From Thermoanaerobaculia bacterium (GTDB taxonomy: Bacteria; Acidobacteriota; Thermoanaerobaculia; Multivoradales; UBA5704): DNA of 64,000 nt. Positions 7,856 to 28,252 of this stretch are shown in pieces. A program made the position numbers and the translations under genes. The first letter of the stretch is position 1, and each line of letters starts with the position of its first letter. Below the pieces are notes generated by a model. The model ran no database searches and was not told the origin of the DNA. It worked only from the letters and a program-made list of their open reading frames with translations. The stretch is from assembly GCA_038250865.1 (NCBI GenBank), contig JBBSBW010000010.1, positions 77,256-141,255 of the forward strand. The letters run 5' to 3'.

Positions 7856-9511
7856 CTATCTGCCGCAGGTCGAGTGAGCGGCGGTATTTACGGTCTGGAT
7901 CTTCTGGGCCAAAGTGATGCGCCCTTCCAGCCAGAAGGCGGCGGAAGTGACCGCCACGCAAGCCACGTACTGCCCGTGATTGCCCCACTGGTGGTTGGTG
8001 CCGAACGGCCCGCTGCAGGGGCAGAGCTGGGCGATCGAGCAGCCGGTGAACAGGCCGGTCGGCAGGCCCGCCGGGGTGAAGGGGCAGAGGTCTTGGCCGT
8101 TGGCGCGGCCATCGCCGTCGATGTCGCCGTCGCAGACGTTGCCCAGGTGGTCGCCGTCGAAATCGGCCTGGTCGGCGTTGGCCACCAGCGGGCAGTTGTC
8201 CACGCCGTTGCCGATTCCGTCGCCGTCGAGGTCGGCGTCGCAGGAGTCGCCGATGCCGTCATGGTCGAGATCCTGCTGGCCGGGGTTGGCGACCAGCGGA
8301 CAGTTGTCGCCCGTGTCGAGCACGCCGTCGTTGTCGTCGTCGGAGTCGCAGGCGTCGCCCAGGCCGTCGTGGTCGTTGTCCGCTTGGGTTGGGTTGGCGA
8401 TCACCGGGCAGTTGTCCGCCGTGTCGAGCACGCCGTCGTTGTCGTCGTCCGGGTCGCAGACGTTGCCGAGGCCGTCACCGTCGCCGTCGGCCTGATCGGG
8501 GTTGGCATCGACGGGGCAGTTGTCGAGGCTGTTCGCAATTCCGTCGAGATCGCTGTCGAGGGAGATAACGATGCCCCAGGGAGTTCCCAGGGGAAAGGTC
8601 GTCGACACGGTGTTCGTCGCCGTGTCGATCACCGAAATCGAGTTGCCGTTGTTATTGGATACGTAGGCGGAGGCCCCATCCGGAGTGATGGCGAGCGCCC
8701 GTGGAAACGCTCCCACCGGCACGGTGGCCACCACGGAATTCGTGGTCGTGTCGATGACGGACACGTTGTTGCTCGTGAGGTTGGCGACGTAGGCAAAGGC
8801 CCCGTTCGGCGTGATGGCGACGTAATCGGGAAACGAGCCGGCCGTCACGACGGCAATCTCGACCTGCGTTGCCGTGTCGATCACCGCAACGATACTGAAG
8901 TTCGCCAGGTAGGCGAAAGCGCCATCGGGTGTGAAAGCGATCGAGCTGGGTGCCGACGCCCCATGGCCGAGGGGAAAGCTCGTGAAGGTGTTCGTCGCCG
9001 GGTCGATCACGGACATCACAGCGGGAAATACCGGGGGGGTGAGATCGTTCCCCGACACCCAGATGGCGCTCCCGTCGGGTGTGGCGGCGAGAGTCTGGCA
9101 GAACAGAGGCAAGGTCGCGACCACCGTATAGGTGGCGGGGTCGATCACGGAAACCGTGCCGAGGTTGTTGTTGCAGGCGTAGAGGAAACCGTTGGAGGCT
9201 TCGGCGACGGCGGTGATGATGTTGCCGCCGGGCACGTTGGCGATCACCGTGTTGGTCGCCAGGTCGACCACCTGGACGGCGTTGTTACCCACCGAGTAGA
9301 GGCGGGCGCCGTCGCGGCTGACGGTGAGGTTGCGGTTGCCGGTTCCCGAGATGGTGTTGGTCACCGTGTTGGTCGCCGTGTCGACCACACTGATCGCGCT
9401 CCCGGTTGCCACGTACGCGTTGAGTTGAGCCTGGGCGGCACCGACACCAAGAGTCGTGGCCAGCAATCCGGCCAGAAGGCAGGTCGCCAGCTTTTTACGT
9501 ACATCTCTCAT
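7856..9511 (-). CDS. secreted YVTN/YncE beta-propeller protein with thrombospondin type-3 Ca-binding repeats
   Basis: Signal peptide; repeated AYVAN..SNNVSVIDTATN blades; repeated DNCPxxANPxQxDxDxDGxGDxCD units; C-terminal WGNHGQYVACV domain. Confidence 0.92.
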   Translation of the reverse strand: MRDVRKKLATCLLAGLLATTLGVGAAQAQLNAYVATGSAISVVDTATNTVTNTISGTGNRNLTVSRDGARLYSVGNNAVQVVDLATNTVIANVPGGNIITAVAEASNGFLYACNNNLGTVSVIDPATYTVVATLPLFCQTLAATPDGSAIWVSGNDLTPPVFPAVMSVIDPATNTFTSFPLGHGASAPSSIAFTPDGAFAYLANFSIVAVIDTATQVEIAVVTAGSFPDYVAITPNGAFAYVANLTSNNVSVIDTTTNSVVATVPVGAFPRALAITPDGASAYVSNNNGNSISVIDTATNTVSTTFPLGTPWGIVISLDSDLDGIANSLDNCPVDANPDQADGDGDGLGNVCDPDDDNDGVLDTADNCPVIANPTQADNDHDGLGDACDSDDDNDGVLDTGDNCPLVANPGQQDLDHDGIGDSCDADLDGDGIGNGVDNCPLVANADQADFDGDHLGNVCDGDIDGDGRANGQDLCPFTPAGLPTGLFTGCSIAQLCPCSGPFGTNHQWGNHGQYVACVAVTSAAFWLEGRITLAQKIQTVNTAAHSTCGR

Positions 9512-9647
9512 CGATCTTCTCCTTGAACCAATTTAGGATGGAGCGGAAACGAGGGTTGAGCCGTCCGCCCCTTGGATCAGCCTGCTCTCATGAACAGTTC
9601 GCTGATTGTGCGGACACATTACCTACTCCTTTTCGCGCTGGGTATCG

Positions 9648-9693
9648 TCTCTAGGGAGGAGATTTACGCCCCGCCCTCCTCTCTAGGGAGGAG
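9648..9693. promoter_or_regulatory. candidate response-regulator operator (14-bp direct repeat, second copy within a near-perfect palindrome)
   Basis: TCTCTAGGGAGGAG at 9648-9661 and 9680-9693; CCTCCTCTCTAGGGAGGAGG is a 20-bp palindrome with one mismatched pair; lies between divergent genes. Confidence 0.5.
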
Positions 9694-9818: not shown

Positions 9819-10568
9819 ATGGCTTTCCTCAAAGAGTGGAGACAGGCCTTGGAGAACAGTGGTTCGCTCGCGCCGGTTCGGCGGCGCCCGACGGTCATCC
9901 TGGCCGATGACCATCCGATGATTACCGGTGGCTTGAAGAAGCTGCTCGAGCCGGAGTTCGAGGTGGTGGCGGTCGCGCGCGACGGGTTGAGCCTGGTCGA
10001 GATCGCCGCCCGCTTGGCCCCTGACCTGGTGATCACCGACCTTTCGATGCCCGGCATTGATGGCATCGAGGCGACCCGCCGGCTGCGGGCAATCCGGCCG
10101 GGGGCACGGGTCCTGATCCTCTCCGTCCATGCCGAGCCCGCCTGGGTGCGCGTGGCGTTTGCGGCCGGGGCCTGCGGCTATCTGGCCAAGACCTCGGTCC
10201 CCGAGGAGATCGAGGACGCCGTCCGCGTCGTGCTCGACAACCGTTTCTACCTCTCTCCGACCGTCGCCCGCGAAACCCTGCTGCCCGCGGCCCAAGGTAA
10301 AGCCGTCCCTCAAACCTTCGACCCGGCGCCTTCGGAAGCCGGCCCGACGCTCACTCCGCGCGAACTCGAAATCCTCCGGATGGTGGGCGCGGGCCTGGGC
10401 AACAAGGAGATCGCCGGGCAGCTTGGTATGGCGTTGACCACGGTGCGCACCCACCTCTCCAGCGTCTACAAGAAGCTGGGCCTGGAAGGGCGGGTGGAGC
10501 TCGCCCTGTACGCCGCGCACCTCGAAGGAGGTGCCGCCGCCGCACCTCCGGGCGGGCCGGCGGCTTGA
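9819..10568 (+). CDS. NarL/LuxR-family response regulator
   Basis: VILADDH...PDLVITDLSMP receiver domain; LTPRELEILRMVGAGLGNKEIA LuxR HTH. Confidence 0.95.
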   Translation: MAFLKEWRQALENSGSLAPVRRRPTVILADDHPMITGGLKKLLEPEFEVVAVARDGLSLVEIAARLAPDLVITDLSMPGIDGIEATRRLRAIRPGARVLILSVHAEPAWVRVAFAAGACGYLAKTSVPEEIEDAVRVVLDNRFYLSPTVARETLLPAAQGKAVPQTFDPAPSEAGPTLTPRELEILRMVGAGLGNKEIAGQLGMALTTVRTHLSSVYKKLGLEGRVELALYAAHLEGGAAAAPPGGPAA

Positions 10569-13500
10569 AGAGCGCGGCGGCGGTCTTCGCCCAGGCGTTC
10601 GAGCAGGGTCAGGAGGCGTTCGTCGGAATCGATGCCGCCGGAACGATCGTGGCCTGGAACCGTGCGGCGGAGCAATTGTTCGGCTATGCGGCGGCGGCGG
10701 CGGTCGGCCGGCCGCTCGCCCTGCTCGGGCTGCCCGACCGAACGACCGGGCTGGCCGCTGGGGCACCAGAGCGGATCGAAAGCCTGCGCCACCGCAACGG
10801 ACGCGAGGTTCGAGTCGCCCTGCGCCGGATCGCGCTCGCCCCCGGTGAAAAAGAGGTGAGCTGGCTGCTTTCCGCCGTCGACGTCGGCGAACGCCACCAG
10901 GCGGAGGAGAAGCTCGCGGGGAGCCGGGAGGCGCTCGCGGCCAGCCGTTCCGAGCTGCGCCGGCTCGCCGCGCGCCGGGTCGCCGCAGAGGAAGAGGCGC
11001 GGTGGCGGGTGGCGCGCGAGCTTCACGACGACCTCGGCCAGCGGGTGACCGCGGCGGCCATAGAACTCAAAGTCGTGCGGCGGCGCATTCCCGACGGCGA
11101 TCCGCTGGGCCCCGACCTGAGCGCTGTTGGGGGTCTCTTGGCGGATCTCGGCGAGGACCTGCGCCGCCTGAGCCACGAGCTTCACCCCGCGGCGCTCGAA
11201 CGTTGCGGTTTGGTCGCGGCGCTCCGCGACCACTGTGTGGAGGTCGCGCGCCGCTTCGACCTGGCGATTCGCCTGAGTCTTTGCGAGATCGACGGGGCTC
11301 TGCCTCAAGACGTTGCGCTCGGCCTGTACCGCTGCGCCCAGGAGGGGCTCGCCAACGTGGTGCGGCATTCCGCGGCGCGCACGGTGCATGTGACCTTGAT
11401 GAAGGTCGAAGGCGCGATGCAGTTGAGCTTGGTCGACGACGGCGTCGGGTTCGATCCCGTCGCCGCGCGCGCAATTCGCGGCTTGGGACTTGCCAGCTTG
11501 GAAGAGCGCGCCGAGTTGCTCGGCGGCGCTTGCCGCATCGTCTCGGCTCCCGGGGCCGGCACCGAGATCGAGGTCACCGTGCCCGCCTCTCTCGAATCGG
11601 ATTTCGATTCGGACGCCGCGCCCGGCCGAGGAGGGACCAGGGCCGGCGAGCTGCCCCGCCAACTCGGGCCGTATCGCCTGCTCGAAGAGATCGGCCGGGG
11701 AGCGGCCACCGTCGTCTATCTGGCCGAGGAGCCCGCGCCTCTCAGCCGCCGGGTGGCGATCAAGCTCCATCAGAGCCCCCTGCCCGGCCGCCCCGAGACG
11801 CTGCGCTTCAAGGCCGAGCAGCAGGCGCTCGCCCGGCTTCACCATCCGGCGATCGCCGAGGTCTACGAGGCGCGCACCACGCCGGACGGCGATCCCTACA
11901 TCGTCATGGAATACGTGCCGGGCCTGGCGATCGATGCCTATTGCGACCGCTATGCCCTCGATTTGCGCCGCCGCCTGGAGCTGTTCGCGACGGTCTGCGG
12001 CGGTGTCCAACACGCGCACCAGAAAGGCATTCTCCATCGCGCGCTTTCCCCCTCGAACCTGCGGGTGATGGAGGACGGTGGGGTGGCACTGCCCAAGATC
12101 ATCGACTTCGGCGTCGCCAAAGGGCTCGACCGGCCGCTCGCCGAGAGCACCGTCTGGACCCCCGAGGACCTGGAGGGTGACCTCGCCTATCTCGCGCCCG
12201 AAGCGCTCGACGGCGGCGAGATCGACGCCCGCGCCGAGGTCTACAGCCTCGGCGCCGTGCTCTACGAGCTGCTGGTCGGCGCGGTGCCGATCGAGGTGGG
12301 CGAGGGGGGAATCGCGGCGCGGCTCGACCCGGATCGCCGGGCGATCGGCTACCCGGTGCCGCCGCCCAGCGAACGCCTCGCCTCAAGAAGCCCGGACACC
12401 GCCGCCGAGATCGTCCGGCGTCGGGGCTTTTCGCGGCCGGGGCAGCTGCGGCGCCGGGTCGCGGGGGATCTCGATCGGATCGCCGCCAAGGCGCTCGCGC
12501 TCGATCCGGCCGAACGCTACCCGACCGTCGAGGCGCTCGGCCTCGAGGTCGAACGCGCCCTGTCCGGTCAGCCGGTCGAAGCGGGCGGCCAGGGTCCTCT
12601 CCCCTCGTTCGGTCGCTTCCTGCGCCGTCACCGCCGGATCGCGGTCGCCGCTGCGCTGCTCGTGCTGGCGCTGCTCGGCGGTTGGCTCGTGAGCGCCCGG
12701 GAGGCGCGCCGCGCGGCCGAAGAAGCGACCCGGGCGGACGCCGTGGCGCAGTTCCTGGAGGATCTGTTCAAGGCGTCCGACCCGCGCGTGGCCAAGGGGG
12801 CGCCGGCCAACGCCCGCGACCTGCTTCGCCGGGGGACGGAGCGCCTGGGCACGGCGCTGGCCAACCAGCCGCTCTTGCGGGCACGGCTGCTCGACAGCCT
12901 TGGGGGCATTCACACCGATCTCGGCCTCTATGCCCAGGCGCGTCCGTTGCTCACCGAGGCGCTCGCGATCCGCGAAAAACTTCGCGGGCCCGACCACCCG
13001 GAGGTCGCCGCGACCCTCCTGCATCTCGGGGCGCTCGCGCAGCTCTCGGGCGAGGGCGACCCCGAGTCGCTTTTTCGCCGCGCTCTGGCGATCCGCGAGA
13101 AGAGCCTCGGAGAGGGGGCGCCCGAGGTGGTCGAGGCGCTGAACAAACTGGGCATTGCGCTCGCGGCCAAGGGGCGGCTCGCCGACGCGAACCCGATCCT
13201 CCACCGCGCGCTCGACCTGGCGGAAAAACTCTGGGGAGCAGAAGACCCGCGGGTGGCGAAAATCCTCCACAATCTGTCGGGGCTGGCGCTCTATCGCGGC
13301 GAGACGGCGGAGGCCGAGCGGCTGCTCGAACGGGCGCTTTCGATCCGCGAAAAGAGCCTGCCGAAAGACGACCTCGACCTCGCCGGCAGCCGCGAGGCCC
13401 TGGCGGTCCTCCGGCTCCGGCAGGGGCGTGCGGCGGAAGCGGAGGCGCTCCTGGTGCCGCTGGTGGCGACGGCGGAGAGGGTCTACGGCCCGGAGCATCC

Positions 13501-13855
13501 CGACTTCGCCCGAGCGCTATTAAACCTCGCGCTCGCGAGGAGCCAGCTCGGGCAAGACGCCGAGGCGAGCCGACTCTTCGAGCAGGCGTTGGCGATCTTC
13601 GACCGCACCCTGGCGCCCGAACACCCCATGGTCGTGCGCGCCCTGGCCAAATTCGCCGATCATCATTTCAACCACCAGCGCTACCGTGAGGCCGAACCGC
13701 TCTACCGGCGCCTGGTCGAGCTGCGCCAAAGAGGAGCCGTGCCTGAAGAATGGGACCGATCGCTCGACAACTACGCCCGCCTGCTGCGGATCGAAGGGCG
13801 CGAAGCCGAGGCGGCGCGGGTGCCGGTGGGAGTGGCGAGGGGGGGCGGCCCTTAG
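10565..13855 (+). CDS. hybrid PAS / HisKA_3-HATPase histidine kinase / Ser-Thr (pseudo)kinase / TM / TPR protein
   Basis: PAS (IVAWNRAAEQLFGY); H-box ARELHDDLGQ; QEGLANVVRHS, DDGVGFD and GLGL boxes; Hanks motifs VAIK, HRALSPSN, DFG, APE; TM; TPR repeats (ALAIREKxLGPDHP). Confidence 0.9.
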   Translation: MKSAAAVFAQAFEQGQEAFVGIDAAGTIVAWNRAAEQLFGYAAAAAVGRPLALLGLPDRTTGLAAGAPERIESLRHRNGREVRVALRRIALAPGEKEVSWLLSAVDVGERHQAEEKLAGSREALAASRSELRRLAARRVAAEEEARWRVARELHDDLGQRVTAAAIELKVVRRRIPDGDPLGPDLSAVGGLLADLGEDLRRLSHELHPAALERCGLVAALRDHCVEVARRFDLAIRLSLCEIDGALPQDVALGLYRCAQEGLANVVRHSAARTVHVTLMKVEGAMQLSLVDDGVGFDPVAARAIRGLGLASLEERAELLGGACRIVSAPGAGTEIEVTVPASLESDFDSDAAPGRGGTRAGELPRQLGPYRLLEEIGRGAATVVYLAEEPAPLSRRVAIKLHQSPLPGRPETLRFKAEQQALARLHHPAIAEVYEARTTPDGDPYIVMEYVPGLAIDAYCDRYALDLRRRLELFATVCGGVQHAHQKGILHRALSPSNLRVMEDGGVALPKIIDFGVAKGLDRPLAESTVWTPEDLEGDLAYLAPEALDGGEIDARAEVYSLGAVLYELLVGAVPIEVGEGGIAARLDPDRRAIGYPVPPPSERLASRSPDTAAEIVRRRGFSRPGQLRRRVAGDLDRIAAKALALDPAERYPTVEALGLEVERALSGQPVEAGGQGPLPSFGRFLRRHRRIAVAAALLVLALLGGWLVSAREARRAAEEATRADAVAQFLEDLFKASDPRVAKGAPANARDLLRRGTERLGTALANQPLLRARLLDSLGGIHTDLGLYAQARPLLTEALAIREKLRGPDHPEVAATLLHLGALAQLSGEGDPESLFRRALAIREKSLGEGAPEVVEALNKLGIALAAKGRLADANPILHRALDLAEKLWGAEDPRVAKILHNLSGLALYRGETAEAERLLERALSIREKSLPKDDLDLAGSREALAVLRLRQGRAAEAEALLVPLVATAERVYGPEHPDFARALLNLALARSQLGQDAEASRLFEQALAIFDRTLAPEHPMVVRALAKFADHHFNHQRYREAEPLYRRLVELRQRGAVPEEWDRSLDNYARLLRIEGREAEAARVPVGVARGGGP

Positions 13856-14572: not shown

Positions 14573-15574
14573 GTGCCGATTCCGGGGAATGCGACGCCGC
14601 AATTTGCGGATGTTTTGGCGGGTATGTTGAGCGGGGTTTCCGCGCAGCTAATGAGCTTGCCGGTTCCTTTGCCTACGGTTTCGGTGACGGAGGCGACGCC
14701 TAAGTCGGTGGGGCTTTCGAACCTGGTCGGATTGGACAACACCTTCGGTTTGCAGTTCGCGACAATCAAAGGGGGCCGGCTGGATGTGGGGTTGAGCGTG
14801 GGGGTGGAGGCCGCCGATGCCGCGGCGGCGGATGCCGCTCTGCTCGCGGCGCATGCCACCTTGCTCGACCGTCGGCCGCAGTTGCGGGCGCGTGGGTTTC
14901 TACGTTTCGAGCCGGGCGTGCTGGCGCCGGTCGTGGAGGCTTCGGGCGTGTTCCGGCGGGCAAGCTCGTACCGTGCGCTTTATGAATACCGTTACACCGA
15001 CGTCGACGGCGCGGCGAGCCTGATCTCTCGAATCCCCGTCGATTCCGATCTCGATTCTCCTCTGGGCGGTCTCGATCCGAGCGGCCACGAGACGTGGGTT
15101 GTCACCGGCCCACTGGTCCGTTGGGACCGCGAGGGGCAATCGACGCTGCGCCTGCGCGGCCCCGGTCAATTGTTGCGTTTCTCGGCGGTCGCCTACCTGC
15201 CGGGCGCGCCTCCACCGGTTGCGGTGACGCTCACCCGCACCTATACCGGGGCGCTCGGCGCGCCGGCCGTGGCGGGCTCGCTCGCCGATCTCACCGCCTC
15301 CGCGCACGCTTCGATCACCTTTCCAACGCTCGGCGACTTTCTCAACCTGTTCGCGGCGGCGACCGAACAGGTCGAGCTGGGCGATTGGGATCTGGACGCG
15401 GTCGCCGACCGCTATGACCTGCGCGATCTGGCGCTCACCCCTGTCCTCACCCTTCCTCGATCGATCGACCGGCTCGAAATCTCGGTGGCTCCGGCCGCCG
15501 GCTGGGTGGGCGATCCCTCGGTTCTCTATCTGCGCACGCATGGCGCGCAATTCCGATTCCGTAAAGAAAACTGA
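14573..15574 (+). CDS. hypothetical first gene of tail operon (possible tail terminator/cap)
   Basis: GGAGG RBS before GTG; position immediately before the sheath gene; function inferred from position only. Confidence 0.6.
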   Translation: MPIPGNATPQFADVLAGMLSGVSAQLMSLPVPLPTVSVTEATPKSVGLSNLVGLDNTFGLQFATIKGGRLDVGLSVGVEAADAAAADAALLAAHATLLDRRPQLRARGFLRFEPGVLAPVVEASGVFRRASSYRALYEYRYTDVDGAASLISRIPVDSDLDSPLGGLDPSGHETWVVTGPLVRWDREGQSTLRLRGPGQLLRFSAVAYLPGAPPPVAVTLTRTYTGALGAPAVAGSLADLTASAHASITFPTLGDFLNLFAAATEQVELGDWDLDAVADRYDLRDLALTPVLTLPRSIDRLEISVAPAAGWVGDPSVLYLRTHGAQFRFRKEN

Positions 15575-15592
15575 CCGAAAGGAGATCCTCAC

Positions 15593-17269
15593 ATGGCCGA
15601 AACGGTGCTTCCAGGCGTATCCATCGAAGTTCGCGACGAGGGGCTGATCGTTCCCACCGCGATCACGGTGGGCAATCTCGGGGTGGTGGGGACGGCGAGC
15701 AAAGGACCGGTCGATCAGCCGGTCATCCTCGCGAGCTATGCCGATGCGCGAGCGCGCTTCGGCGAATATGACCTCTGGCAGGGCGGCACGGCGGATGAGC
15801 TGACGCTCACCCGCGCGCTGGAGCTGGCGTTCCAACATGGAGCCACGACCGCGATCGCAGTGCGGGTCTCGGCGAAAGACAACGATTCGCAGCACACGAT
15901 CCTCGCGACCCGCGCGGAGCGGGTGTTGACCGCCGGTGCGGCGACCCCCGTCAAGGTGGTGGCGAAGAGCCCCGGCACGTGGGGCAACGATCTCGAAGTG
16001 CGGATCGAAGCCGCGACCGAGAACGCGTTCGTCGAAGACGAGGACGTTCAGGGCCTGCAACTGGCGGTCGAAAAAGTGATCCAGAGCGCGCGCAACCGGA
16101 TCCGTATCCGCCCGGCGGGCGGCGGCTCCGACCGTCCGCTCGCAATCGTCTACGACACCGCGGTGGTGCCGAACCCGGGCCAGGCGGTGGTCGACCTTTC
16201 GACCGGCGCGCTCACCCTCGCGGCGGGGCTTCCCGGCGCCGACAAGGTGATCGCCTCCTACATGGCCGACAGCAGCAAGGCGGTGCAGGTGACGATCCGC
16301 CTCGGCGAGGCGAAAGAGGTCTATCCGGTGGTTTCGGGGCGCGACCTGATCCGGGACCTCGCGGCTTCGGCGTGGGTCGACGGCAAGGTCGACAACGCCG
16401 CGCACCTCGACGAGTTGCTCGACCTCACGCCGAGCTTCGATCGCTTGACCGGCGGCAGCAACGGCGCCGGTGGGGCCGATTATCAAACCGGCCTCGATCT
16501 GCTGGAAAACCAGGACGCGCACATCATCGTCGCGGCCGGCCAGGACGAATCGTTCGGCGACGAGCTGTCGGCCCATTGCGCGATCGCCTCGTCCGACTTG
16601 GTGCAGCGGAACCGCATCGGTGTGATCGGCTGCGGCTCGGCCGCGAACAAAGATGCGTTCTTGGCCAAGGCCCTCGGCCATCCGCTGTCGAGCGACCGGG
16701 TGATCTTCGTCGCCCCGGGCATCAAGACCGCCGATCGCGCGGCCGTGCCGCCGGCGGACGTTTCGCTGCCGGGTTCGTACGCGGCGGCCGCCGTAGCCGG
16801 CGTGCTGTCGAGCCTGCCGGCGCACGTGAGCTTGACCAACAAGACGCTGTTCGTGGGAGGCCTCGAATACGAGCTCTCCCGCGCGGAGCTGGAGCAGATG
16901 GTCAAGGCGCGCGTCCTCGCTTTGGAAAAGCGCCAGGGCATCCGGATCGTTCAGGGGCTCACCAGCTCGACCAACACCGCGTTTCGCCAGATCACCACGC
17001 GGCGGATCGTCGATTTCGCCTCGTTCGGCGTTCGCTCGGCCGCCAATCCGTTCATCGGCCGGCTGAACAACGAGCGGGTGCGCGGCGCGCTGCGCACCGC
17101 GATCAACGGTTTCCTCGCCGAGATGGTGCTGGACAAGATGCTGGTCAGCTACGAGCTGGCCGTCTCGGCCACGCGCGATCAGGAGATCCGCGGCATCGTC
17201 CAAGTCACCATGACCCTCCGTCCGGTGTTCAGCATCGATTACATCCGCGTCGTCATGTTCCTACAGTGA
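15593..17269 (+). CDS. contractile tail sheath protein
   Basis: VLPGVSIEV, VVGTASKGPV, AKSPGTWGN, ITTRRIVD and FIGRLNNERVR...VTMTLRPVFSIDYI sheath motifs. Confidence 0.95.
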   Translation: MAETVLPGVSIEVRDEGLIVPTAITVGNLGVVGTASKGPVDQPVILASYADARARFGEYDLWQGGTADELTLTRALELAFQHGATTAIAVRVSAKDNDSQHTILATRAERVLTAGAATPVKVVAKSPGTWGNDLEVRIEAATENAFVEDEDVQGLQLAVEKVIQSARNRIRIRPAGGGSDRPLAIVYDTAVVPNPGQAVVDLSTGALTLAAGLPGADKVIASYMADSSKAVQVTIRLGEAKEVYPVVSGRDLIRDLAASAWVDGKVDNAAHLDELLDLTPSFDRLTGGSNGAGGADYQTGLDLLENQDAHIIVAAGQDESFGDELSAHCAIASSDLVQRNRIGVIGCGSAANKDAFLAKALGHPLSSDRVIFVAPGIKTADRAAVPPADVSLPGSYAAAAVAGVLSSLPAHVSLTNKTLFVGGLEYELSRAELEQMVKARVLALEKRQGIRIVQGLTSSTNTAFRQITTRRIVDFASFGVRSAANPFIGRLNNERVRGALRTAINGFLAEMVLDKMLVSYELAVSATRDQEIRGIVQVTMTLRPVFSIDYIRVVMFLQ

Positions 17270-17301
17270 TGCCGCGAACTGGCTCTTAGGAGAACCGAGA
17301 C

Positions 17302-17847
17302 ATGCCATTGAACGACGTCTACAGCGGAGCGGACGGCACCTTGGTGCTGATCGCCGCGGGCACCGACGCTGAGTCGGCCGACGCGACCGCGATCACCAGC
17401 CTCGAAGCGTTTACGATCGCCGACGTGGGGCGCGTCACCGGAGTCGAGCTGCACGTCGACACCGACTTGCGCGAGTTCCACGAAGTGGGGCGGCGTCACG
17501 CGACCTCGCTCCACCCGGGCAACATCCACATTTGGGGCACGATCGACCGTGCGTACGTGAACGGTGCCCTGCTCTACCTGCTGCTCGGTCGCGGCGCCTC
17601 CCCCAACAATATCTCCGAGCCGTATCCCCAGCCGGCCCTGGCGATGAACCTGGTGTTTCAAAACCCCGCCGTCCCTGGCCACCGCAGCGTGATCGACGTG
17701 GTCGACATCAAGTTTGAGAACTGGGCGGTGCGCATGCCGGAAGACGAGTTCGTGATGGAGAAGGTCCGATTCCGCGCCTTGCGGATCGACGTGCGCGACC
17801 AGGAAGGCACGGAGATCCGCGTGCCGACCTTCCCCGCCGCGGCGTAA
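17302..17847 (+). CDS. tail tube protein (putative)
   Basis: 181 aa directly after sheath; beta-rich; EFHEVGRR...GNIHIWGTIDR and VMEKVRFRAL tube-like pattern. Confidence 0.7.
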   Translation: MPLNDVYSGADGTLVLIAAGTDAESADATAITSLEAFTIADVGRVTGVELHVDTDLREFHEVGRRHATSLHPGNIHIWGTIDRAYVNGALLYLLLGRGASPNNISEPYPQPALAMNLVFQNPAVPGHRSVIDVVDIKFENWAVRMPEDEFVMEKVRFRALRIDVRDQEGTEIRVPTFPAAA

Positions 17848-17859
17848 AGGAGCCGAGCC

Positions 17860-18315
17860 GTGCCCCTTTCCGCGGAAGACCTGCTCGCCGGCGGCGCGCT
17901 CACCCACGAGGTGGAGCTGCCGGCGAGTTTCCTGGCCGAGGGGGCGACCTCCGGCCAGGTCTCCTTGCGACCGCTCACCGTGCGCGACCTGCAACGCATC
18001 GCCAAGGCCGCCCCCGGCGACGAAGATCTCGCCGCCGCGCTGATGGTTCAGCTCGCCCTGGTCGAGCCGGCCCTTTCGATCGATCAGGTCCACAAGCTCC
18101 CCGCGGGGCTCGCGCGTTTCCTGGTCGAAAAGATCAACGAGCTGTCGGGTATCTCCACCCCGCGCGACGCGCTCGAAGAGCTGGTGCAGGCGCCTCTCGC
18201 CCGGGCCTGCTTCCAGCTCGCCAAAGAGTTCGGCTGGACCCCGGAAGAGGTGAGCGGCATGACCATCGGCCAGATCCTGCTCTACCTCGAAATGGTGCGG
18301 AGAGACCGCAAGTGA
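17860..18315 (+). CDS. tail assembly chaperone (gpG/gpE-like with fused C-terminal extension)
   Basis: VSLRPLTVRDL chaperone motif; C-terminal FGWTPEEVSGMT resembles the P2 gpE' segment. Confidence 0.7.
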   Translation: MPLSAEDLLAGGALTHEVELPASFLAEGATSGQVSLRPLTVRDLQRIAKAAPGDEDLAAALMVQLALVEPALSIDQVHKLPAGLARFLVEKINELSGISTPRDALEELVQAPLARACFQLAKEFGWTPEEVSGMTIGQILLYLEMVRRDRK

Positions 18316-19532
18316 AACGAGCCCACCCGCTCCGCTCCTTTCGGCAGTCGTACCTCCGACAGGCCCAAAAGCTGCCGGATCTCAGAAGATCCGGTGGCTG
18401 GGCACTTGCCTTCTCGGCCGAAAAGCCGAGACTGAACGACAGCCCGCTGTTCGGCTCGTCCCTCGAAGAGCTGACCGGAGCCGAGACCTCGACTCCCAAA
18501 CCCCAACAACACCCGACGCGGCGAGGAGGAAGAGCGGAAGAACCGCCCACCTCGCCCGCGCCGAGACGCAGCGGGTCGAACGTAGCCAAAGCCTTTCGAA
18601 GAGAAGAGCCGAGAGAGCCGGCTCCGCCGAGAGCCCTACCCCCGGAAGCTCCTGCGGCGGAACTCGCCCGCTGGGCAGGGGAGAAGGTGGAAGCCGTTCA
18701 ACAGCCGCAACGAAGAAAAAGAGAGAGCCCGGCAAGCGGAAGGCAAGCGCCCGATCCACAGGCCGTTGCCGACCATCGGCGGGAAGTCGCGACGCGTTCG
18801 AGGCGGCCTCTCTCCGTGACGGGCATGCCCAATGAATTGTCAGTAAGGGAGGAATCTCCCGAGGCCCGCGGGCGCGCGGAGCATGCGGCATCTCTGGAGA
18901 CCTCCGAACGCGGTGAGAAGAAGGCTGCCGGTAGCCTCGGGGTTGTTTCTCACTCCCGGTTGGGAGCGGCGCCTGACATCTCCGTCCGCGAGCCCGCCCC
19001 GCGGGTCCCTCTTTCCTCCCTACCCAGACAGGGCGGGAGGGGGAACGACCCATGGGGCACCCTCGTTTCCGGCGCGCAAGCGCCGCGTACCCTCCTGGAT
19101 GTGCCAACGAAGGAAAACGTTGCCCAACGAAGCCCGAAGGCAGCTCGCCCACGTGCTTCGAGTTCGCCGTTTTTACCCATCGACGAATCCCCAGCATCCC
19201 AGCCCAACGCGGCCAACGTTTCGCCGTTCTCGCACGATCGATCCTCCGCGCCCACGTTCGACGCCCACGAAGGCCACCCTTCTCCCTTCGCGCCGATCGC
19301 CGCCGATCCGCTCTCTCCGCACCCTACCGGCTCGCCGCTCGGGCCGTTCCCGAACGGCCCGACGCCCGACCGGGCGCTCCCCGACACCTTGCAGGGCGTT
19401 CCTTCTTTTTCTCCACCTGAAGCTTTTTCTTTTGCCCCTTCTTCTTCGTCTTCCGACGACCTATCCGATCTCGCTTCGAAGATCGAGCGCATCCTTACCG
19501 ACGAAGCGCGCCGCCATGGGATCGACGTCTGA
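18312..19532 (+). CDS. Pro/Ser/Ala-rich low-complexity protein in the tape-measure position
   Basis: Start and stop overlap both neighbours; mostly disordered composition with helical C-terminus DLASKIERILTDEARRHGIDV. Confidence 0.6.
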   Translation: MKRAHPLRSFRQSYLRQAQKLPDLRRSGGWALAFSAEKPRLNDSPLFGSSLEELTGAETSTPKPQQHPTRRGGRAEEPPTSPAPRRSGSNVAKAFRREEPREPAPPRALPPEAPAAELARWAGEKVEAVQQPQRRKRESPASGRQAPDPQAVADHRREVATRSRRPLSVTGMPNELSVREESPEARGRAEHAASLETSERGEKKAAGSLGVVSHSRLGAAPDISVREPAPRVPLSSLPRQGGRGNDPWGTLVSGAQAPRTLLDVPTKENVAQRSPKAARPRASSSPFLPIDESPASQPNAANVSPFSHDRSSAPTFDAHEGHPSPFAPIAADPLSPHPTGSPLGPFPNGPTPDRALPDTLQGVPSFSPPEAFSFAPSSSSSDDLSDLASKIERILTDEARRHGIDV

Positions 19533-20080
19533 TGCGCCCGATGCTCGACGACCTCGCTCTCCCTCAGGTGCAGGAGATCCGCACCTTGGAGCTGCGCTCG
19601 CTCGTCGAGCACAAGCCGCCGGGCATGTCCGGCAGCTTGCTCCAAAACCTTGGCCGTAAACCGGCGGTGCTCCAGCTCTGGGGGGTGGCCTCCGGCCCGG
19701 ATTCGAAACAATTCTTGGCCGATCTCGAAACGAAGTTCCGCGCGGCGACGCCGGTACCTTTCGTCGCCGACATCGCGACCAGCGCGGCGGTCCTAAAGTT
19801 CGCGATCCGCGATCTGCGGATGGAAGAGCTTGCCGGCCGCCCCGAGCGCTTCGCCTATGTCTTGACGCTCGCCGAGTTCATCGAGCCGGTCGAACCGGCG
19901 GAGCTCGAATCCGCGCTCGTCGATGCCGACCTGCTCGACCAGGCCGCAGGCCTGATGGACCAGATCACCGCCGGGCTCGACCTGGTGCCCGATTTCGCAA
20001 CTGGTCTTGAACGCTTCATCGCACCGCTCTCCGAGATGCTCACCCGCGTTCGCCAGTTCAACGCGGGCGGGGCTCACTGA
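19532..20080 (+). CDS. Mu gpN 'DNA circularisation N-terminal'-like (tube initiator-like) protein
   Basis: VEHKPPGMSGSLLQNLGRKP pattern; paralog of the N-terminus of 20574. Confidence 0.65.
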   Translation: MRPMLDDLALPQVQEIRTLELRSLVEHKPPGMSGSLLQNLGRKPAVLQLWGVASGPDSKQFLADLETKFRAATPVPFVADIATSAAVLKFAIRDLRMEELAGRPERFAYVLTLAEFIEPVEPAELESALVDADLLDQAAGLMDQITAGLDLVPDFATGLERFIAPLSEMLTRVRQFNAGGAH

Positions 20081-20093
20081 AAGGAAAACCATT

Positions 20094-20528
20094 ATGGCCA
20101 CCACGCCCGCCAGTCTGTTTGAGGATCTGAAGCGCACCCTCACCGAATTCAAAACCTTTCTCGACGCCAACATCGGGATCATCCGCCCGGCGATCCAGAC
20201 CCTCGGCTCGGTCGTGCCGCAGCTGCCGCAGCTGATCGGCCCGCTCGCGACGCTTCTCACCCAGTTGAAGACGGAGGTCCACAACCTGAACCCCGGGGCG
20301 GTCGCGGGGGATGCGCTGGCGAAAGTGACCGAGTTCTCCACCTCGACCCGCTCGCTGCTCGAAACCGCGAAGAACCTGCTCCCCGCGCAGGCCGCGGCGA
20401 TCGATCAGGTGCTCGGCGCGTTGGACATCGTGGGCTCCCTGCCGTCGCTCGGCGCGATCAAGGCCGAGATCGAATCGCTGCTCGATGCGGTCATCGTGCA
20501 CATCCGTTCACTTCAACCCTCGTCGTAG
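20094..20528 (+). CDS. all-helical hypothetical protein
   Basis: AAGGA RBS; amphipathic helices; in operon. Confidence 0.75.
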   Translation: MATTPASLFEDLKRTLTEFKTFLDANIGIIRPAIQTLGSVVPQLPQLIGPLATLLTQLKTEVHNLNPGAVAGDALAKVTEFSTSTRSLLETAKNLLPAQAAAIDQVLGALDIVGSLPSLGAIKAEIESLLDAVIVHIRSLQPSS

Positions 20529-20573
20529 CCGCCGGTTTAAGAACACCGCACGATTCCGAGGAGCCGTAAGCCC

Positions 20574-22481
20574 ATGCCGCCGCCCCGCCCCATGCTCGAC
20601 GATCTGGAGCTCGTCCAGGCGCAGCGCATCGCGTCCTCGGACGAGCAGGTATTCGCCGAGCACGCGGTTCCCGCGCTCGAAGGGGATTTCCTTCAGGATC
20701 TCGGCCGGCGCGCGGTGCGGATCGAAGCCTCCGCCGTGCTCACCGGGCCGGAGGCGAAAGACAAGGTGGCGGACCTGCGGGAGAAGTTCCGGGTTGCGGA
20801 ACCGATGCCGTTTACCGCCGACATCGCAACCGCCACGAGGGTCGATCCGGTGCTCGTCGAATCGCTCGCGATCCGCGAGCGCGCCGGCCGGCCCGAGGCG
20901 TTCGAGGTGGCGATCTCGCTGCGTGAATTCATCGCGCCGCCTACCCCTGAGACCGAGGATCCGCCGATCCTGCCGCCCGATCCGCCGGTCGAAGAGATCG
21001 GCTCGCTTGAGGTGACGGTGCTGGTCGAAGGGCGGCCGGAGTTCGATTTCTCAACTGTCACGGTGACGGCCACCGGCACGCAGGACAGCGGCCCAACTCT
21101 CGACCGGCCGGTGACAGGCCGGAGCGGCAACGTCTGGACCGAAGACGGCTTTCCGCCAGGGAAGTACACGATCAACGCGGTGGTCGAAAGCCCAGAGGCT
21201 CTCTCGGGCGCCGCGCCCGCGGACGTGCGGTCGGGCCAGGTGACGGAGGTGATGATCGTCCTTCATCCCGGTGCGCAGATCGCCAAGGCGTTCATCATCC
21301 ATTACCGCTTCGACCGGGCGTTCGTCGAGCCCTGCCTGCGCGAGGTGCTGCGTCGGGTGGTCGACTATTCGGACGTCCATCCGAAGGAGAAGATGCTGGT
21401 GGTCGGCCACACCGACCGGGCCGGCTCGGGCGACTACAACCAGTTCCTCTCCGAACGCCGGGCGCGCGGCGTCTACGCATTCCTCGCCTTCGGCCGCGAG
21501 CGAGATCTCGCGATCGATGATTGGAACGAGCTGCGGAAGAAGGCTGTCGGCGGGTCGAGCCTCGCCGATTCGTGGAGCGAACGCGAGCAGCAGTACATGC
21601 TCCAGGATCTCGGCTTTTACGTCGGCAACATCGACGAGAAACCGAGCGCCGATCTGACCGCGGCGACCGTGCGATTTCAGACCGATCGGGGCCTAACGGC
21701 AGACGGCGTGATGGGCGACACCACATGGAAGGCGCTGGTGACGGCCTACATGGAACAGGACTCGTTCGCGATCCCCGAAGCGCGCCTGTTCCGCAACGCC
21801 GACGGCTCGGGCGACGCCGGGCCTCTCCGTTGGCTCGGCTGCGGCGAGCAGGTGCCGGTCAAGAACACCGAGGACGCCTGGCGGCCGAATCGGCGGACCG
21901 AGATCCTGTTCGTGCGTGCCGAAAAGATCCCCTGCCAGGTGGCAAAGCCGGTCACGCTCGACCTGCCGCCGAATTCGCCGACGCTGGGGCCGCCGCCTCG
22001 CCCGTGGCGGCTCGGGCCGGGCAACGTGAACCAGCGGCAATGCTTCGCCACCCGCGATCCGAACGAGCGCGGCAAGTGGCTGATCCAACCGGCGGAACCG
22101 GGGAAGGTCAGGGTGGAAGGGCAGATCGTCTTCGAGGACGGCAGTCCCGTGCCGAACGCGCAGTTCGCGCTCGCCGCGGCCGACGGCGAATACCTGCACA
22201 CCAACGAGGCGGGGGAGGCCGATCTCGGCGAGGTGCCGCGGACCACCGCGTTTTCTCCCGATCATCCGACCCAGGCCGGCCGGCCGATCCCCGATCGCGC
22301 GGACGCCGAGGGAAAGTTCTCGTATCCCAAGGAGACGCCGGAAGGGGTCTACATCCTGGAGCTGTTCGGCCTCGACCGACCGGCAACGGCGCGCGCGGGC
22401 GACGACGCGCCGGAAGAGGCGCGCGGCAACATCGTCTGTCTTCATTTCGAACCGGGCGGCGGCTCGGTGGTGGTTCGGTGA
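20574..22481 (+). CDS. gpN-like domain fused to OmpA-like and peptidoglycan-binding domains
   Basis: N-terminal AEHAVPALEGDFLQDLGRR; OmpA GHTDRAGSGDYNQFLSERRA...NRRTEILF interrupted by PG_binding_1 (FQTDRGLTADGVMGDTTW); Ig-like flanking domains. Confidence 0.85.
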   Translation: MPPPRPMLDDLELVQAQRIASSDEQVFAEHAVPALEGDFLQDLGRRAVRIEASAVLTGPEAKDKVADLREKFRVAEPMPFTADIATATRVDPVLVESLAIRERAGRPEAFEVAISLREFIAPPTPETEDPPILPPDPPVEEIGSLEVTVLVEGRPEFDFSTVTVTATGTQDSGPTLDRPVTGRSGNVWTEDGFPPGKYTINAVVESPEALSGAAPADVRSGQVTEVMIVLHPGAQIAKAFIIHYRFDRAFVEPCLREVLRRVVDYSDVHPKEKMLVVGHTDRAGSGDYNQFLSERRARGVYAFLAFGRERDLAIDDWNELRKKAVGGSSLADSWSEREQQYMLQDLGFYVGNIDEKPSADLTAATVRFQTDRGLTADGVMGDTTWKALVTAYMEQDSFAIPEARLFRNADGSGDAGPLRWLGCGEQVPVKNTEDAWRPNRRTEILFVRAEKIPCQVAKPVTLDLPPNSPTLGPPPRPWRLGPGNVNQRQCFATRDPNERGKWLIQPAEPGKVRVEGQIVFEDGSPVPNAQFALAAADGEYLHTNEAGEADLGEVPRTTAFSPDHPTQAGRPIPDRADAEGKFSYPKETPEGVYILELFGLDRPATARAGDDAPEEARGNIVCLHFEPGGGSVVVR

Positions 22482-22491
22482 GGCAACGGCG

Positions 22492-25400
22492 ATGACCGAT
22501 CCGCAGAAAGGCGTGATCCAGCGAGTGCCGGTCGTGCCCTCGCCGATCGCTGGAACGTTCACGTTTCCGGCGAATCGCGCTGCGCTTTCCGTGCCGCTCC
22601 CGGTGATGGTGCAGCGCCCGCACACTACGCCCGCACGGGTCGAAGTGGTGATCGGCGTCTCGCGCCGCTTCCGCGGCACCGGAGGAACGTTGGACGAGAG
22701 TGGGAAGATCGCCGCGATCAGCTGGTTCGACAGAGCGGGCAACCCAATCGTTTTCACCAATGGTGCCCGCTCTCTCACCACGGCCCAGCTCAACGCGGGT
22801 TTTCATATGTTCGGCGAGAGCACCGTTCCGAGCGATTCGGTCGGCGACTACGTGCTCACACTCACGCTCGTAGGCGGCCCCGATCCGCTCGCCACACCGG
22901 CTTCTCATGCCGACCTGACTGCGGTGCGCCTGACGCTCGATGTCTTTCCGCCTGGCCCACGGTTCGGCCCTGGCGTGCCGGCGCCGATGCCCGAGCCGCC
23001 AGCCGCGGCGCCGGCTCCCGGTACCGCGACCGACAAGTGGTTCCTCGGCCGCACGGTGAACGTCCAGGACGCGGCGCTGGCACAGGAGCGGGCGCGCATT
23101 CGGGTCCGCCAGGTCGAGCCGTCGAGCTTCGCCGGCAGGCTTTCAATTCGCCAGCGGGCTCTCTCGGGCACCACGATCGGTCGCGACACCGCGCGCGCCG
23201 CGCTGTTTGACGACGATCTGGTTCCACCGCCCGGTCTGCCGCCGCCAGCAGTTGCCCCCCCGGCGAACACGAACCCGTTCGCTTTCGATCCGCCGAGCAT
23301 TCTCGGTCGCGACTTCTTCGTCGAGGGGCGAGCGCTAAGCGCTGCGCGGCGCGATATCGCTTTCCAGGTCGGTTTTGAAGGGGGGGAGCCGGACGGCGAC
23401 CGGATCGCCTTTACGGTCGGTGTCGGCTGCTCGATCGCGATCGGTAATCCATTGCGTGCCGTGCTGGTGAAGAAAGCGCCCGCGAACCCCGCCCGCCAGA
23501 CGGTCACGCTCAAAGCGAACGTCGCATTTGCGGGGACCGGTTCGTTCGACGTGACCGCCGGCAATGCGCCGACGAAAGTCCAGTTCTTTGCCACGGCGAT
23601 CAGCGTGGCGGCGCTACCCCTGCCGATCACCGCGCCGGGCGCGCAGCTCTCATCCGCCACGGGTTTCCAGCTGTTCGCCGAGGGGATTGCGCCGAGCGGC
23701 ACGGTGGACGAGCTGGAACTCGCGTTGACTCTCGCAGACGGCACGCCCCCTTCGGGAGTACCCGCGAGGGCGAAGATGACTGCGGTCGAGGTCACCCTCG
23801 ACGTCTTCCTCTCTCGCCCTCTCGCCGGTGGAGCGGCGCCGCAGATGCCGACGGCGGACAAGGTGGCGACCGGCCGATTCATCCAGGTTGCGAGCCCGAC
23901 CGCGAGTCACGAGCGGGTTCGTTTGGTCGTTCAGCCTCCGACCCCGAATCTCTCCTGTGACCTCATGCTAAGGGCGCTCGGGCCGGCACCGGCCGCGGTC
24001 AGACCGTTCACTGATGAGAGGATCAACGTCGGTCGCGAGGTGGCTCTGCCGGAGAGGATCTCCTCTCTGGCCGCGGGCCTGGGGCAGTTCGATCGCTTCG
24101 CGGAAGGGATCCGGCCGAGCGCCGCATTGCGCGATACCGGCTTCCAACTCGGCATCGATACCCTCGACGACGACGGCGATCGGGTGCCGATGACCGCGCT
24201 CGAGTTCGCGGTGGCGGAAGATGACACGGCGGCCGCAGCGGTGCTCCACGCGGTTCGTTTCGGGCTGTGGGACCAGGGGTACGACGCGGCGGGCGATGTG
24301 CGCGCGGATTTCATCGACAGCGACCGCCGACGCTTTCATTTCCAGACGCGGGGCGGGCCGAACGTGGCGACGCTAAGTCTCGCTTGGCGAACGCTACGCG
24401 CCGACCGGACGACAGGTGACGACGTGCCGGCTTCAGACCTCCTAACTCTTTCCCGGACACCCGACGGGCGGCTCGTTTCGCGCGGGGTGATGCTGGTGAC
24501 CGACGACATCGACGCGGCGCAGTCCACTCAGAGCGGCCTCGTACCACCGCTCGGCGTGGAGCCCAGAGTCCGCGGTGCCTCGGACCATCGGCTCCGTCGC
24601 GCGCGAATCGACGGCTTCGTGCGCGCGACGATCCAGCCGGCCGCCGGTCAGATTCATAGCTTGACGCTTCCGGTCTTCGATCGCGAAGTGCCGTTCTCGA
24701 CCACCTCGACGAGCGTGGTGGCGCCGGGTGTCGCGGCGGTGACTCCAGCGGCTATGAGCGGCACGGCGAACACGGGGGCGCGGTGGCGGATCAAGGTGGG
24801 CTCGAAGCTGACGATCGACAGCGGCGCAAACCAGGAGACGGTGACCGTGACGACGGTTGCCGCTGGTTCCTTCACGGCGAACTTCGCCGGAGCTCATGGT
24901 GGCGCGCCGTACCCAGTTGCAGGAGCCACCGATGAGCGGCGCAGGCTTCGGGTCAGGGTCGTTCGCTACCTGAATGCTTTGGATTTCTCGTACGTGGCTG
25001 CGCTCGACGGCGATATTGATGCGCAGTTCGCTCATGCCAACCAGCGTTGGATGCCGGCGGGCTTGCAGATCGATCGGTCGGCGACCGAGGACCGGCAGAT
25101 CCCGGCGGCGGCGCTGGATGCCGGCAAGTTCCCTGCTGATCCGGTCAACAGTCCGCAGGAACTCGCCGCTTACTCCGATCTGATCGCGGGGAGCGCGGAT
25201 GGTGGCATCACCGTCGTCTTCGTCGACCTGAGCGGGGGGGCAAATGCGATCACCTCCATCCAGGACGTGCCGAACATCGTGACCTCGGCGGGACCTGTGC
25301 CCTTTGGCGACCGGATGTTCATCTTCATCGCGGGCCGGCTCGATCCGCTGGACGAGACCCTCGCCCATGAGTTGTCGCACGCCCTCTACAATCGGTCGGA

Positions 25401-25644: not shown

Positions 25645-25656
25645 AGGAGTGAGGAA

Positions 25657-26061
25657 ATGGACGGGATCGAGGCAGATGTGCGCACGATGATCGGTGGCAG
25701 CTTCACCCAGCATTCGCTGGCGCCGACGGAATACGAGGCGATTCTTAGCCGCGCTCGCGAGAAACCCGACGCCTACCTGGACGTCTTCGAACGCGATTGC
25801 CTCGGGGTTCGCTTCGACGCCGAGCAGCACTCGAACCTTCATGCCGCCGTCCTGCTGCGCCACCTACGCGACGTGGCACCCGATCGAGTTCGCGCGCTCG
25901 CGGCGAGTTTGCTCCGGCAATACGACGCAGTGCTCGTGATCTATGACCAGCTCCCGGATAAAGCGATGCTCGACGCGCACCTCCCGCTGCGAAGCGCGAA
26001 CTACCTGGTCCGCCTGAGCGAGCGACGCCGCGAGCTGCGCCGCCTGGCGGAGGAGCCATGA
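25657..26061 (+). CDS. small helical protein, putative immunity/inhibitor
   Basis: GAGG RBS; 134 aa directly after the putative effector; function inferred from position. Confidence 0.55.
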   Translation: MDGIEADVRTMIGGSFTQHSLAPTEYEAILSRAREKPDAYLDVFERDCLGVRFDAEQHSNLHAAVLLRHLRDVAPDRVRALAASLLRQYDAVLVIYDQLPDKAMLDAHLPLRSANYLVRLSERRRELRRLAEEP

Positions 26062-27895: not shown

Positions 27896-27904
27896 GGGAA
27901 AATC

Positions 27905-28240: not shown

Positions 28241-28252
28241 CGCCGTCTTTCG

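Follow-up and report, generated by a model that had tools for sequence, protein, structure and literature searches.

In the stretch of DNA analysed here (the window: 64,000 nucleotides of a soil-type Thermoanaerobaculia bacterium, GenBank assembly GCA_038250865.1, contig JBBSBW010000010.1, positions 77,256 to 141,255), two genes at window positions 9819 to 13855 encode a NarL-type response regulator and a sensor of 1096 residues. The sensor joins a PAS domain and a histidine kinase (HK) to a Hanks-type Ser/Thr kinase (STK) domain, a transmembrane (TM) helix and tetratricopeptide repeats (TPR). We read the pair, with a probability of about 0.7, as a two-component system that has kept, within the chassis of a former PknS-like receptor kinase, a pseudokinase selected for a non-catalytic role. 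A non-catalytic job is proposed because the domain has lost catalytic residues, yet its fold remains under purifying selection.

Organization of the gene pair and of the sensor

The regulator, the sensor and the parts of the sensor lie as follows in the window.

9819-10568, + strand: NarL/GerE-type response regulator, 249 residues (open reading frame (ORF) list, Pfam, NCBIfam)
10565-13855, + strand: sensor ORF, 1096 residues, TTG start (ORF list)
10586-10915, + strand: cytoplasmic PAS domain, residues 8-117 (Pfam PAS, PAS_8 and PAS_4; NCBIfam sensory_box at 6-117)
11000-11197, + strand: HisKA_3 dimerization and histidine phosphotransfer (DHp) domain, residues 146-211 (Pfam E 1e-10), phospho-acceptor H154 at nucleotides 11024-11026
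11315-11587, + strand: HATPase_c domain, residues 251-341 (Pfam E 2e-9), with N264, D291xGxG and G306LGL
11594-11653, + strand: flexible HK-kinase linker, residues 344-363 (predicted local confidence, pLDDT, below 50)
11660-12565, + strand: Hanks-type pseudokinase domain, residues 366-667 (Pfam Pkinase at 370-579, E 5e-30)
12035-12058, + strand: catalytic loop HRALSPSN, residues 491-498 (motif position)
12638-12697, + strand: single TM helix, residues 692-711, following RFLRRHRR (hydropathy, charge count)
12812-13816, + strand: kinesin-light-chain-like TPR domain, residues 750-1084, predicted extracytoplasmic (Pfam TPR_12 and TPR_10)

The TTG start of the sensor gene overlaps the TGA stop of the regulator gene (gcTTGAag), and regulator and sensor form a translationally coupled pair. 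Homologues of the sensor start with Met at the residue equivalent to this TTG, and one database protein (P0003) is identical to the sensor. Pfam recognizes Response_reg (residues 26-136) and GerE (residues 177-232) in the regulator, for which the best NCBIfam match is NarL with an E-value of 6e-39, below the cut-off. The acid-pocket residues D30, D31, D74, S102 and K124 are intact by sequence.

The presence of PAS, HisKA_3/HATPase, Hanks kinase, TM and TPR segments in a single ORF, which an earlier annotation made from the DNA letters and translations (the original prediction) had asserted, was borne out by Pfam, NCBIfam and hydropathy. The Pfam PAS match itself covers residues 13-86. TPR_12 and TPR_10 match at about 770-1050 (E 2e-43 and 2e-37), and the TPR domain matches kinesin light chain in the Protein Data Bank (PDB 7ai4, E 6e-30). 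The 15 residues preceding the TM helix include five Lys/Arg and no Asp/Glu, and the 15 following it three Lys/Arg and three Asp/Glu; on account of this asymmetry around the lone hydrophobic peak at 692-711, both kinase parts are predicted to be cytoplasmic and the TPR domain to face outward (N-in, C-out). All 40 of the long forms, the fusions that include the kinase domain, share H154, D155, N264, D291, G293, G295 and G306-L309 without exception, and D493 is variable among them. Judged from these residues, the histidine-kinase core of the sensor is intact.

An AlphaFold2 model of the sensor built on a 40-row alignment had a mean pLDDT of 80.9. The ATPase domain was modelled confidently, the kinase core had a pLDDT of 80-95 and the TPR solenoid one above 90; confidence was low at residues 344-363 (HK-kinase linker), 517-535 (activation loop) and 675-712 (juxtamembrane region). 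An unbroken helix (108-174) runs in the model from PAS into DHp, and a second helix (690-737) covers the TM segment. A complex prediction with two HK cores (120-345) and the pseudokinase (364-670) scored 0.00, a value that bears neither way on contact between them.

Loss of kinase catalytic residues

The Asp of the HRD motif is the catalytic base of Hanks kinases. The sensor has a Hanks fold, as seen from the matches to Pkinase (E 5e-30), PknS (E 2e-38) and PknB (E 1e-35) and from the pLDDT of the core, and the kinase motifs quoted in the original prediction were all found in place: GRGAATVVY at residues 377-385, VAIK at 397-400, DFG at 514-516, GDLAYLAPE at 538-546 and ARAEVYSLG at 555-563, besides the HRA-type catalytic loop. 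We aligned 53 kinase domains, one from the query, 51 from homologues fused to an HK and one from a kinase without such a fusion. HRA is read in the query and in the nine homologues closest to it (P0004-P0011 and P0039), and outside this HRA clade the loop is mostly HRDLKP. The loop Lys is replaced by Ser, Cys, Glu, Gly or Thr and the P+1 Thr is gone in all 10 clade members, Glu replaces the subdomain IX Asp in nine, and the DFG Asp is also gone in four; all ten retain the β3 Lys and the αC Glu. K400, E418, N498 and D514 are still present in the query. Degeneration is scattered elsewhere in the alignment (HRN in P0019; VALE in P0023, P0028 and P0029; GFG in seven proteins), and no fused member has the third Gly in its Gly-loop, so that this absence is not specific to the HRA clade.

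A pseudokinase has been defined in a 2025 review by the absence of at least one of the β3 Lys, the HRD Asp and the DFG Asp (PMC12599244), and 19 of the 53 kinase domains are without at least one of these three residues. Because its HRD Asp is replaced by A493, the kinase domain of the sensor is a pseudokinase on that definition, and by the usual criteria its kinase catalysis appears to be lost.

The HRA clade is monophyletic with a support of 99 (10 of 10 rows) in a FastTree phylogeny of the TM and TPR region with 122 rows. Its support is 100 both in an IQ-TREE phylogeny of 45 rows (7 of 7 sampled rows) and in a tree of the HK domain (9 of 9 rows, one row falling under the length filter). The loss of HRD is not random decay, as the original prediction had considered it might be, since HRA is shared by the query and all nine of its closest homologues. 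Conservation of the loss among the homologous fusions held for these ten and failed for more distant fusions, which keep HRD. The genome copies divide in the same manner: those of this genome (G000) and of two others of its genus (G153 and G213) read HRA, and those of G357 and G305 read HRD.

Five changes in the C-lobe define the clade, three of them being D493A, T539D and D558E. The positions of D493, T539 and D558 form one hydrogen-bond network round the catalytic loop, and T539D is the only clade-defining change that brings in a new acidic residue that could compensate.

Two cysteine positions also differ between the HRA clade and the HRD-type fusions. PAS residue 103 (10871-10873) is Cys in 20 of 20 HRD-type fusions and Ser throughout the clade, and residue 158 (11036-11038), four after the phospho-His, is Cys in 23 of 26 HRD-type fusions and Gly throughout the clade. 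A thiol-based input could thus have been lost in the HRA clade together with kinase activity.

Selection on the segments of the sensor

The segments were compared by their mean pairwise identity within the HRA clade and by dN/dS among the three fusion-carrying genomes of the genus; these ratios are approximate, as they come from three sequences of a GC-rich genome with dS at 0.4-0.9.

Kinase N-lobe: identity 0.87, dN/dS 0.09-0.16
DHp: identity 0.78, dN/dS 0.18-0.21
ATPase domain: identity 0.75, dN/dS 0.28-0.36
TPR: identity 0.74, dN/dS 0.19-0.24
Kinase C-lobe: identity 0.73, dN/dS 0.19-0.32
HK-kinase linker: identity 0.43, dN/dS 0.90-1.36

The N-lobe of the pseudokinase has the highest identity and the lowest dN/dS of any segment. 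Purifying selection acts on every domain, and the linker on the HK side is neutral; both linkers flanking the pseudokinase are poorly conserved. With its catalytic Asp lost clade-wide and the domain under purifying selection, the pseudokinase call of the original prediction stands.

Relationship to ECF-coupled receptor kinases

Of the PDB entries, the one that best matches the kinase domain and its long C-terminal extension (residues 366-664) is PknS (9EED, chain 9eed_A; E 2e-38), and PknB is a further match of the kinase domain (E 1e-35). In Xanthomonas citri the kinase PknS spans the membrane, carries TPRs in the periplasm and phosphorylates the extracytoplasmic function (ECF) sigma factor EcfK; its function requires the periplasmic domain (PMC13147305). 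Kinase-associated groups of ECF sigma factors have been catalogued (PMC7826278). Six unfused STK-TM-TPR paralogues were examined in this genome, and five of them (at loci L003, L004, L005, L007 and L010, not at L006) have a Sigma70_ECF gene (PF07638) directly upstream on the same strand. At the sensor locus the upstream slot holds a response regulator and no sigma factor. PknS as the best solved match and the sigma factor genes upstream of five of the six paralogues bear out the receptor-kinase origin that had been proposed for the sensor.

Rooting on the unfused-kinase outgroup places long forms with HRD-like loops (P0045, P0047 and P0043) on the earliest ingroup branches, which indicates that the kinase domain is ancestral to the fusion family. 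The sensor is apparently a receptor-kinase chassis that was moved from a sigma factor to a two-component regulator.

The genome contains at least 20 further kinase-domain matches, and pairs of an ECF sigma factor with an STK-TM-TPR protein are many in it. Relatives of the kinase domain (P0129, P0132, P0135, P0149 and P0162) include tandem Pkinase-Pkinase-TPR proteins, which suggest that the same receptor chassis has also gained a second, N-terminal Hanks kinase in place of a histidine kinase.

Reality and distribution of the fusion

The sensor was matched by 903 database proteins, and 120 proteins, the query and 119 of the best 120, were classified. HK, kinase and TPR are combined in 43 of these (the query included), and HK and TPR without a kinase domain in 67; seven of the remainder have HK and kinase fragments and three have kinase and TPR only. 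The sources of the relatives are named as Thermoanaerobaculia or Acidobacteria. A census of the genomes of the class, in which two candidates per genome were scored, found the full-length fusion in at least 5 of 401, a figure that is a floor: the three genomes of the genus named above, one of the same family (G357) and one of the same order (G305). In a library of 1.84 billion proteins, 13 of the best 150 representatives align with HK and kinase as one stretch, and the three of these that were scanned have the same build as the sensor.

The original prediction had flagged the junction at about 11590-11660, that is the HK-kinase linker, for confirmation in reads. The junction is bridged by a 2738-nucleotide Logan contig of run X1, covering 10659-12600 with one mismatch, and by a 307-nucleotide contig of run X2, covering 11390-11696; the two runs come from a single study, and the source sample may be X1 itself. 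An apparent joint of 10609 to 11872 in run X2 was set aside as foreign or repeat sequence, its shorter side being only 20 letters long. That the fusion might be a misassembly or a singleton is contradicted by the 42 other HK-kinase-TPR proteins among the best 120 of the 903 matches.

The regulator accompanies the sensor in other genomes. As the regulator in the window does, an orthologous regulator lies directly upstream of the long-form sensor in G153, G213 and G357, where it is 55-75% identical to the one in the window, and another lies directly upstream in five loci of other genomes that encode sensors without a kinase domain (54-61% identity). The upstream regulator is thus kept in eight loci of other genomes, three with long forms and five with short forms. 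In G305 the regulator is found 2.2 kb downstream of the fusion.

Short forms without the kinase domain

The short forms are 614-651 residues in length and consist of about 20 residues followed by HisKA_3, HATPase, a short basic linker, the TM helix and TPR. One of them, P0110 (619 residues; HisKA_3-HATPase-TM-TPR), is encoded on another contig of this genome next to a NarL-type regulator of its own. At this paralogous locus (L002, on contig G000:C40) the regulator gene occupies 182-847 and P0110 844-2703, and the regulator is 61% identical to the one described here. Since only about 20 residues precede its DHp domain, the sensor-like domain of P0110 is solely the C-terminal one, which is predicted to be periplasmic.

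Trees of the TPR region require at least 3-4 changes between presence and absence of the kinase domain; with the HK tree, one origin is enough. That the domain was deleted several times independently was considered and not upheld, exchange of the TPR segment between paralogues being an equally good reading. Such exchange is suggested by the long/short pair P0016 and P0069, which is 88% identical in TPR as against 68% in HK.

Proposed mechanism and alternatives

The ancestor of the sensor would have been an STK-TM-TPR chassis encoded behind an ECF sigma factor. A PAS-histidine-kinase module would have come to stand at the N-terminus of this chassis and a response regulator directly before it; within the genus to which this genome belongs, D493, the loop Lys, T539 and D558 would have been lost, by D493A, T539D and D558E at the three numbered positions. 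Phosphate would pass from H154 to D74 of the regulator, the GerE domain of which would then act on promoters, and the PAS domain would be the proximal cytoplasmic input. We envisage that the pseudokinase serves for dimerization or docking, placed between the histidine-kinase core on one side and the membrane anchor with its periplasmic TPR domain on the other. It would act most plausibly via its highly conserved N-lobe, coupling the state of the TPR domain and anchor to the histidine kinase; the N-lobe is the dimer interface in PknB-type kinases. The original prediction had taken the pseudokinase for an allosteric relay into the two-component output; that this step really relays a signal, and does not just tether, we would give somewhat less than even odds.

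Several observations weigh against a selected pseudokinase that controls the HK. The kinase domain would seem to be dispensable for the core unit, because the regulator is kept in the five short-form loci of other genomes and in the paralogous pair of this genome; more broadly, the 67 classified proteins without a kinase domain keep HK, TM and TPR. The HK-kinase linker evolves neutrally and is disordered in the model, the juxtamembrane region (675-712) is of low confidence, and the unbroken helix that leads into DHp comes from PAS and not from the kinase domain. A rigid allosteric rod is disfavoured by such flexible, neutral linkers and by the relatives that have no kinase domain, which leave room for control by proximity or dimerization, or for a mere tether. 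The four residues that the query retains (K400, E418, N498 and D514) also count here, and the pseudokinase may bind nucleotide. To these are added the roughness of the dN/dS values and the finding that, when the loci of G153, G213, G357 and G305 were compared, the regulator was the only conserved neighbour of the sensor.

Much of this would fit a passive tether, with the dead kinase domain a leftover spacer, PAS the sole input, and TM and TPR serving to localize the protein or to scaffold periplasmic partners. The poorly conserved linkers on both sides, neutral and disordered on the side of the HK, the continuous PAS-DHp helix and the short forms that manage without the kinase domain all agree with such an arrangement. 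A spacer, however, should not show the lowest dN/dS (0.09-0.16) or the top identity (0.87), as the N-lobe does, and PAS is not the only input of the family, being absent from the short forms and from long forms P0032-P0036, P0038 and P0039. On balance we regard the tether as unlikely. A pseudokinase might instead act in trans, as HER3 does with HER2, by pairing with or being phosphorylated by an active STK-TM-TPR paralogue, so that a Ser/Thr network would feed the two-component output. The 20 or more further kinase-domain matches in the genome would supply partners, and conservation extends to the N-lobe and to the Ser/Thr of the activation loop (ESTVWT), but no paralogue is a conserved neighbour, and we judge docking of this kind improbable.

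The retained β3 Lys, αC Glu, loop Asn and DFG Asp of the query raise the question of whether the domain is still a kinase by an atypical mechanism, which would make the protein a dual His and Ser/Thr kinase. Against this, all 10 clade members are without the catalytic base, loop Lys and P+1 Thr, four of them are without the DFG Asp as well, and T539D apart no compensating acid is seen among the clade-defining changes; an active kinase is accordingly given very little credence. That the gene is a chimera of the assembly or a decaying pseudogene can practically be dismissed, as the frame is open over 1096 codons, independent contigs bridge the junction, the same build recurs in many assemblies and all domains are under purifying selection. 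The preferred reading remains a selected pseudokinase with a non-catalytic role in a two-component sensor.

Neighbouring genes and upstream region

The following features flank the pair.

7856-9511, - strand: beta-propeller protein with five thrombospondin type 3 repeats, divergent from the regulator gene; its N-terminus, judged by eye, resembles a signal peptide
14573-30000, + strand: phage-tail-like/contractile-injection gene cluster beginning 0.7 kb downstream of the sensor gene
15593-17269, within this cluster: sheath protein (Phage_sheath_1 and 1C)
20574-22481, within this cluster: OmpA/PG_binding/DNA_circ_N protein

The contractile-tail cluster and the beta-propeller gene do not adjoin the pair in G153, G213, G357 or G305. 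The distant fusion in G305 has other beta-propeller proteins (Calx-beta/lactonase, Kelch) on its flanks, which may be coincidence. The neighbourhood was dropped as a clue to the regulon, the regulator being the sole shared gene.

A 17-nucleotide direct repeat, TC(G/C)TCTCTAGGGAGGAG, is present at 9645-9661 and 9677-9693, the copies being 32 nucleotides apart and both 125-175 nucleotides upstream of the regulator ATG. The second copy lies within a 10+10 palindrome. Within the window a 14-mer of the repeat occurs only at those two sites, and none of 100 shuffles reached two matches. The repeat may be an operator; as a conserved operator it was rejected, the exact 14-mer being absent from every other locus compared.

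Significance

If the periplasmic TPR domain truly controls the HK, these proteins would be sensor kinases of reverse polarity, receiving their signal from the C-terminal side. The signal would travel through the membrane helix, and here the pseudokinase, to the ATPase domain and not via the DHp helix. We found no description of control of a histidine kinase from its C-terminal side in the literature searched. Bacterial pseudokinases are mostly uncharacterized, and most polypeptides known to unite a histidine with a Ser/Thr kinase come from cyanobacteria, where the two stand the other way round.

The family also provides natural controls, in that one sensor exists with a live kinase, with a dead kinase and without a kinase, each time with the same regulator upstream, and the latter two forms co-exist in this genome. 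Both the contribution of a dead kinase domain to an HK and control by a sensor C-terminal to the ATPase domain thereby become accessible questions. On the same receptor chassis, one output (sigma factor phosphorylation) would have been swapped for another (a His-Asp relay). It is tempting, if doubtful, to arrange the forms as a stepwise conversion of a receptor into a two-component system, from an ECF sigma factor with STK-TM-TPR, through a regulator with PAS-HK-STK-TM-TPR in which the kinase is live and then dead but selected, to HK-TM-TPR with the kinase deleted.

Comparison with known systems

Among known systems, PknS/EcfK and other receptor Ser/Thr kinases tied to ECF sigma factors (ECF43 and allied groups) come close to the sensor. 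The sensor resembles PknS in having a kinase domain with an extended C-terminal segment, one membrane helix and a TPR domain that is periplasmic (PMC13147305), by prediction in the present case. It differs in being without the catalytic Asp and Lys, in having PAS-HisKA_3-HATPase ahead of the kinase domain, and in its upstream gene, which encodes a NarL-type response regulator where the partner of PknS is a sigma factor.

The original prediction had stated that known STK-HK hybrids usually carry the STK at the N-terminus, and this is true of the cyanobacterial dual kinases (PMC2176072). The proteins of the cbSTKIII group (HstK/Alr2258, Pkn40 and Pkn41) have an N-terminal STK, at least one GAF domain between, and a C-terminal HisKA kinase (PMC2176072, PMC1262709). 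In the protein described here the order is reversed, the DHp domain is of the HisKA_3 type, there is no GAF domain, a membrane helix and TPR are present, and the kinase domain is dead. The literature searched, supplementary files being outside its scope, contained no description of a HisKA_3-HATPase-Pkinase-TM-TPR protein.

Bacterial Ser/Thr pseudokinase families include MviN/ActPs3, EssB/YukC, ActPs1-2, GLW, CP1, DYD and DLHK, which are thought to work by dimerization or scaffolding (PMC12599244). They share with the sensor a Hanks fold without a canonical catalytic residue, often beside a membrane helix. None of them was found joined to an HK or to TPR in the available text, which makes no mention of TPR, Acidobacteri or HATPase. 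The domain described here differs in that the phosphotransfer residues alone are lost, the Lys-Glu pair being kept in 10 of 10 clade members.

With NarX/NarL, LiaS/LiaR and DesK/DesR the pair shares HisKA_3 and HATPase_c domains in which every catalytic box is present, and a neighbouring REC-GerE regulator. In kinases of the NarX, LiaS and DesK types the DHp domain follows the membrane and sensor parts, whereas here the membrane helix and a large extracytoplasmic domain are C-terminal to the ATPase domain.

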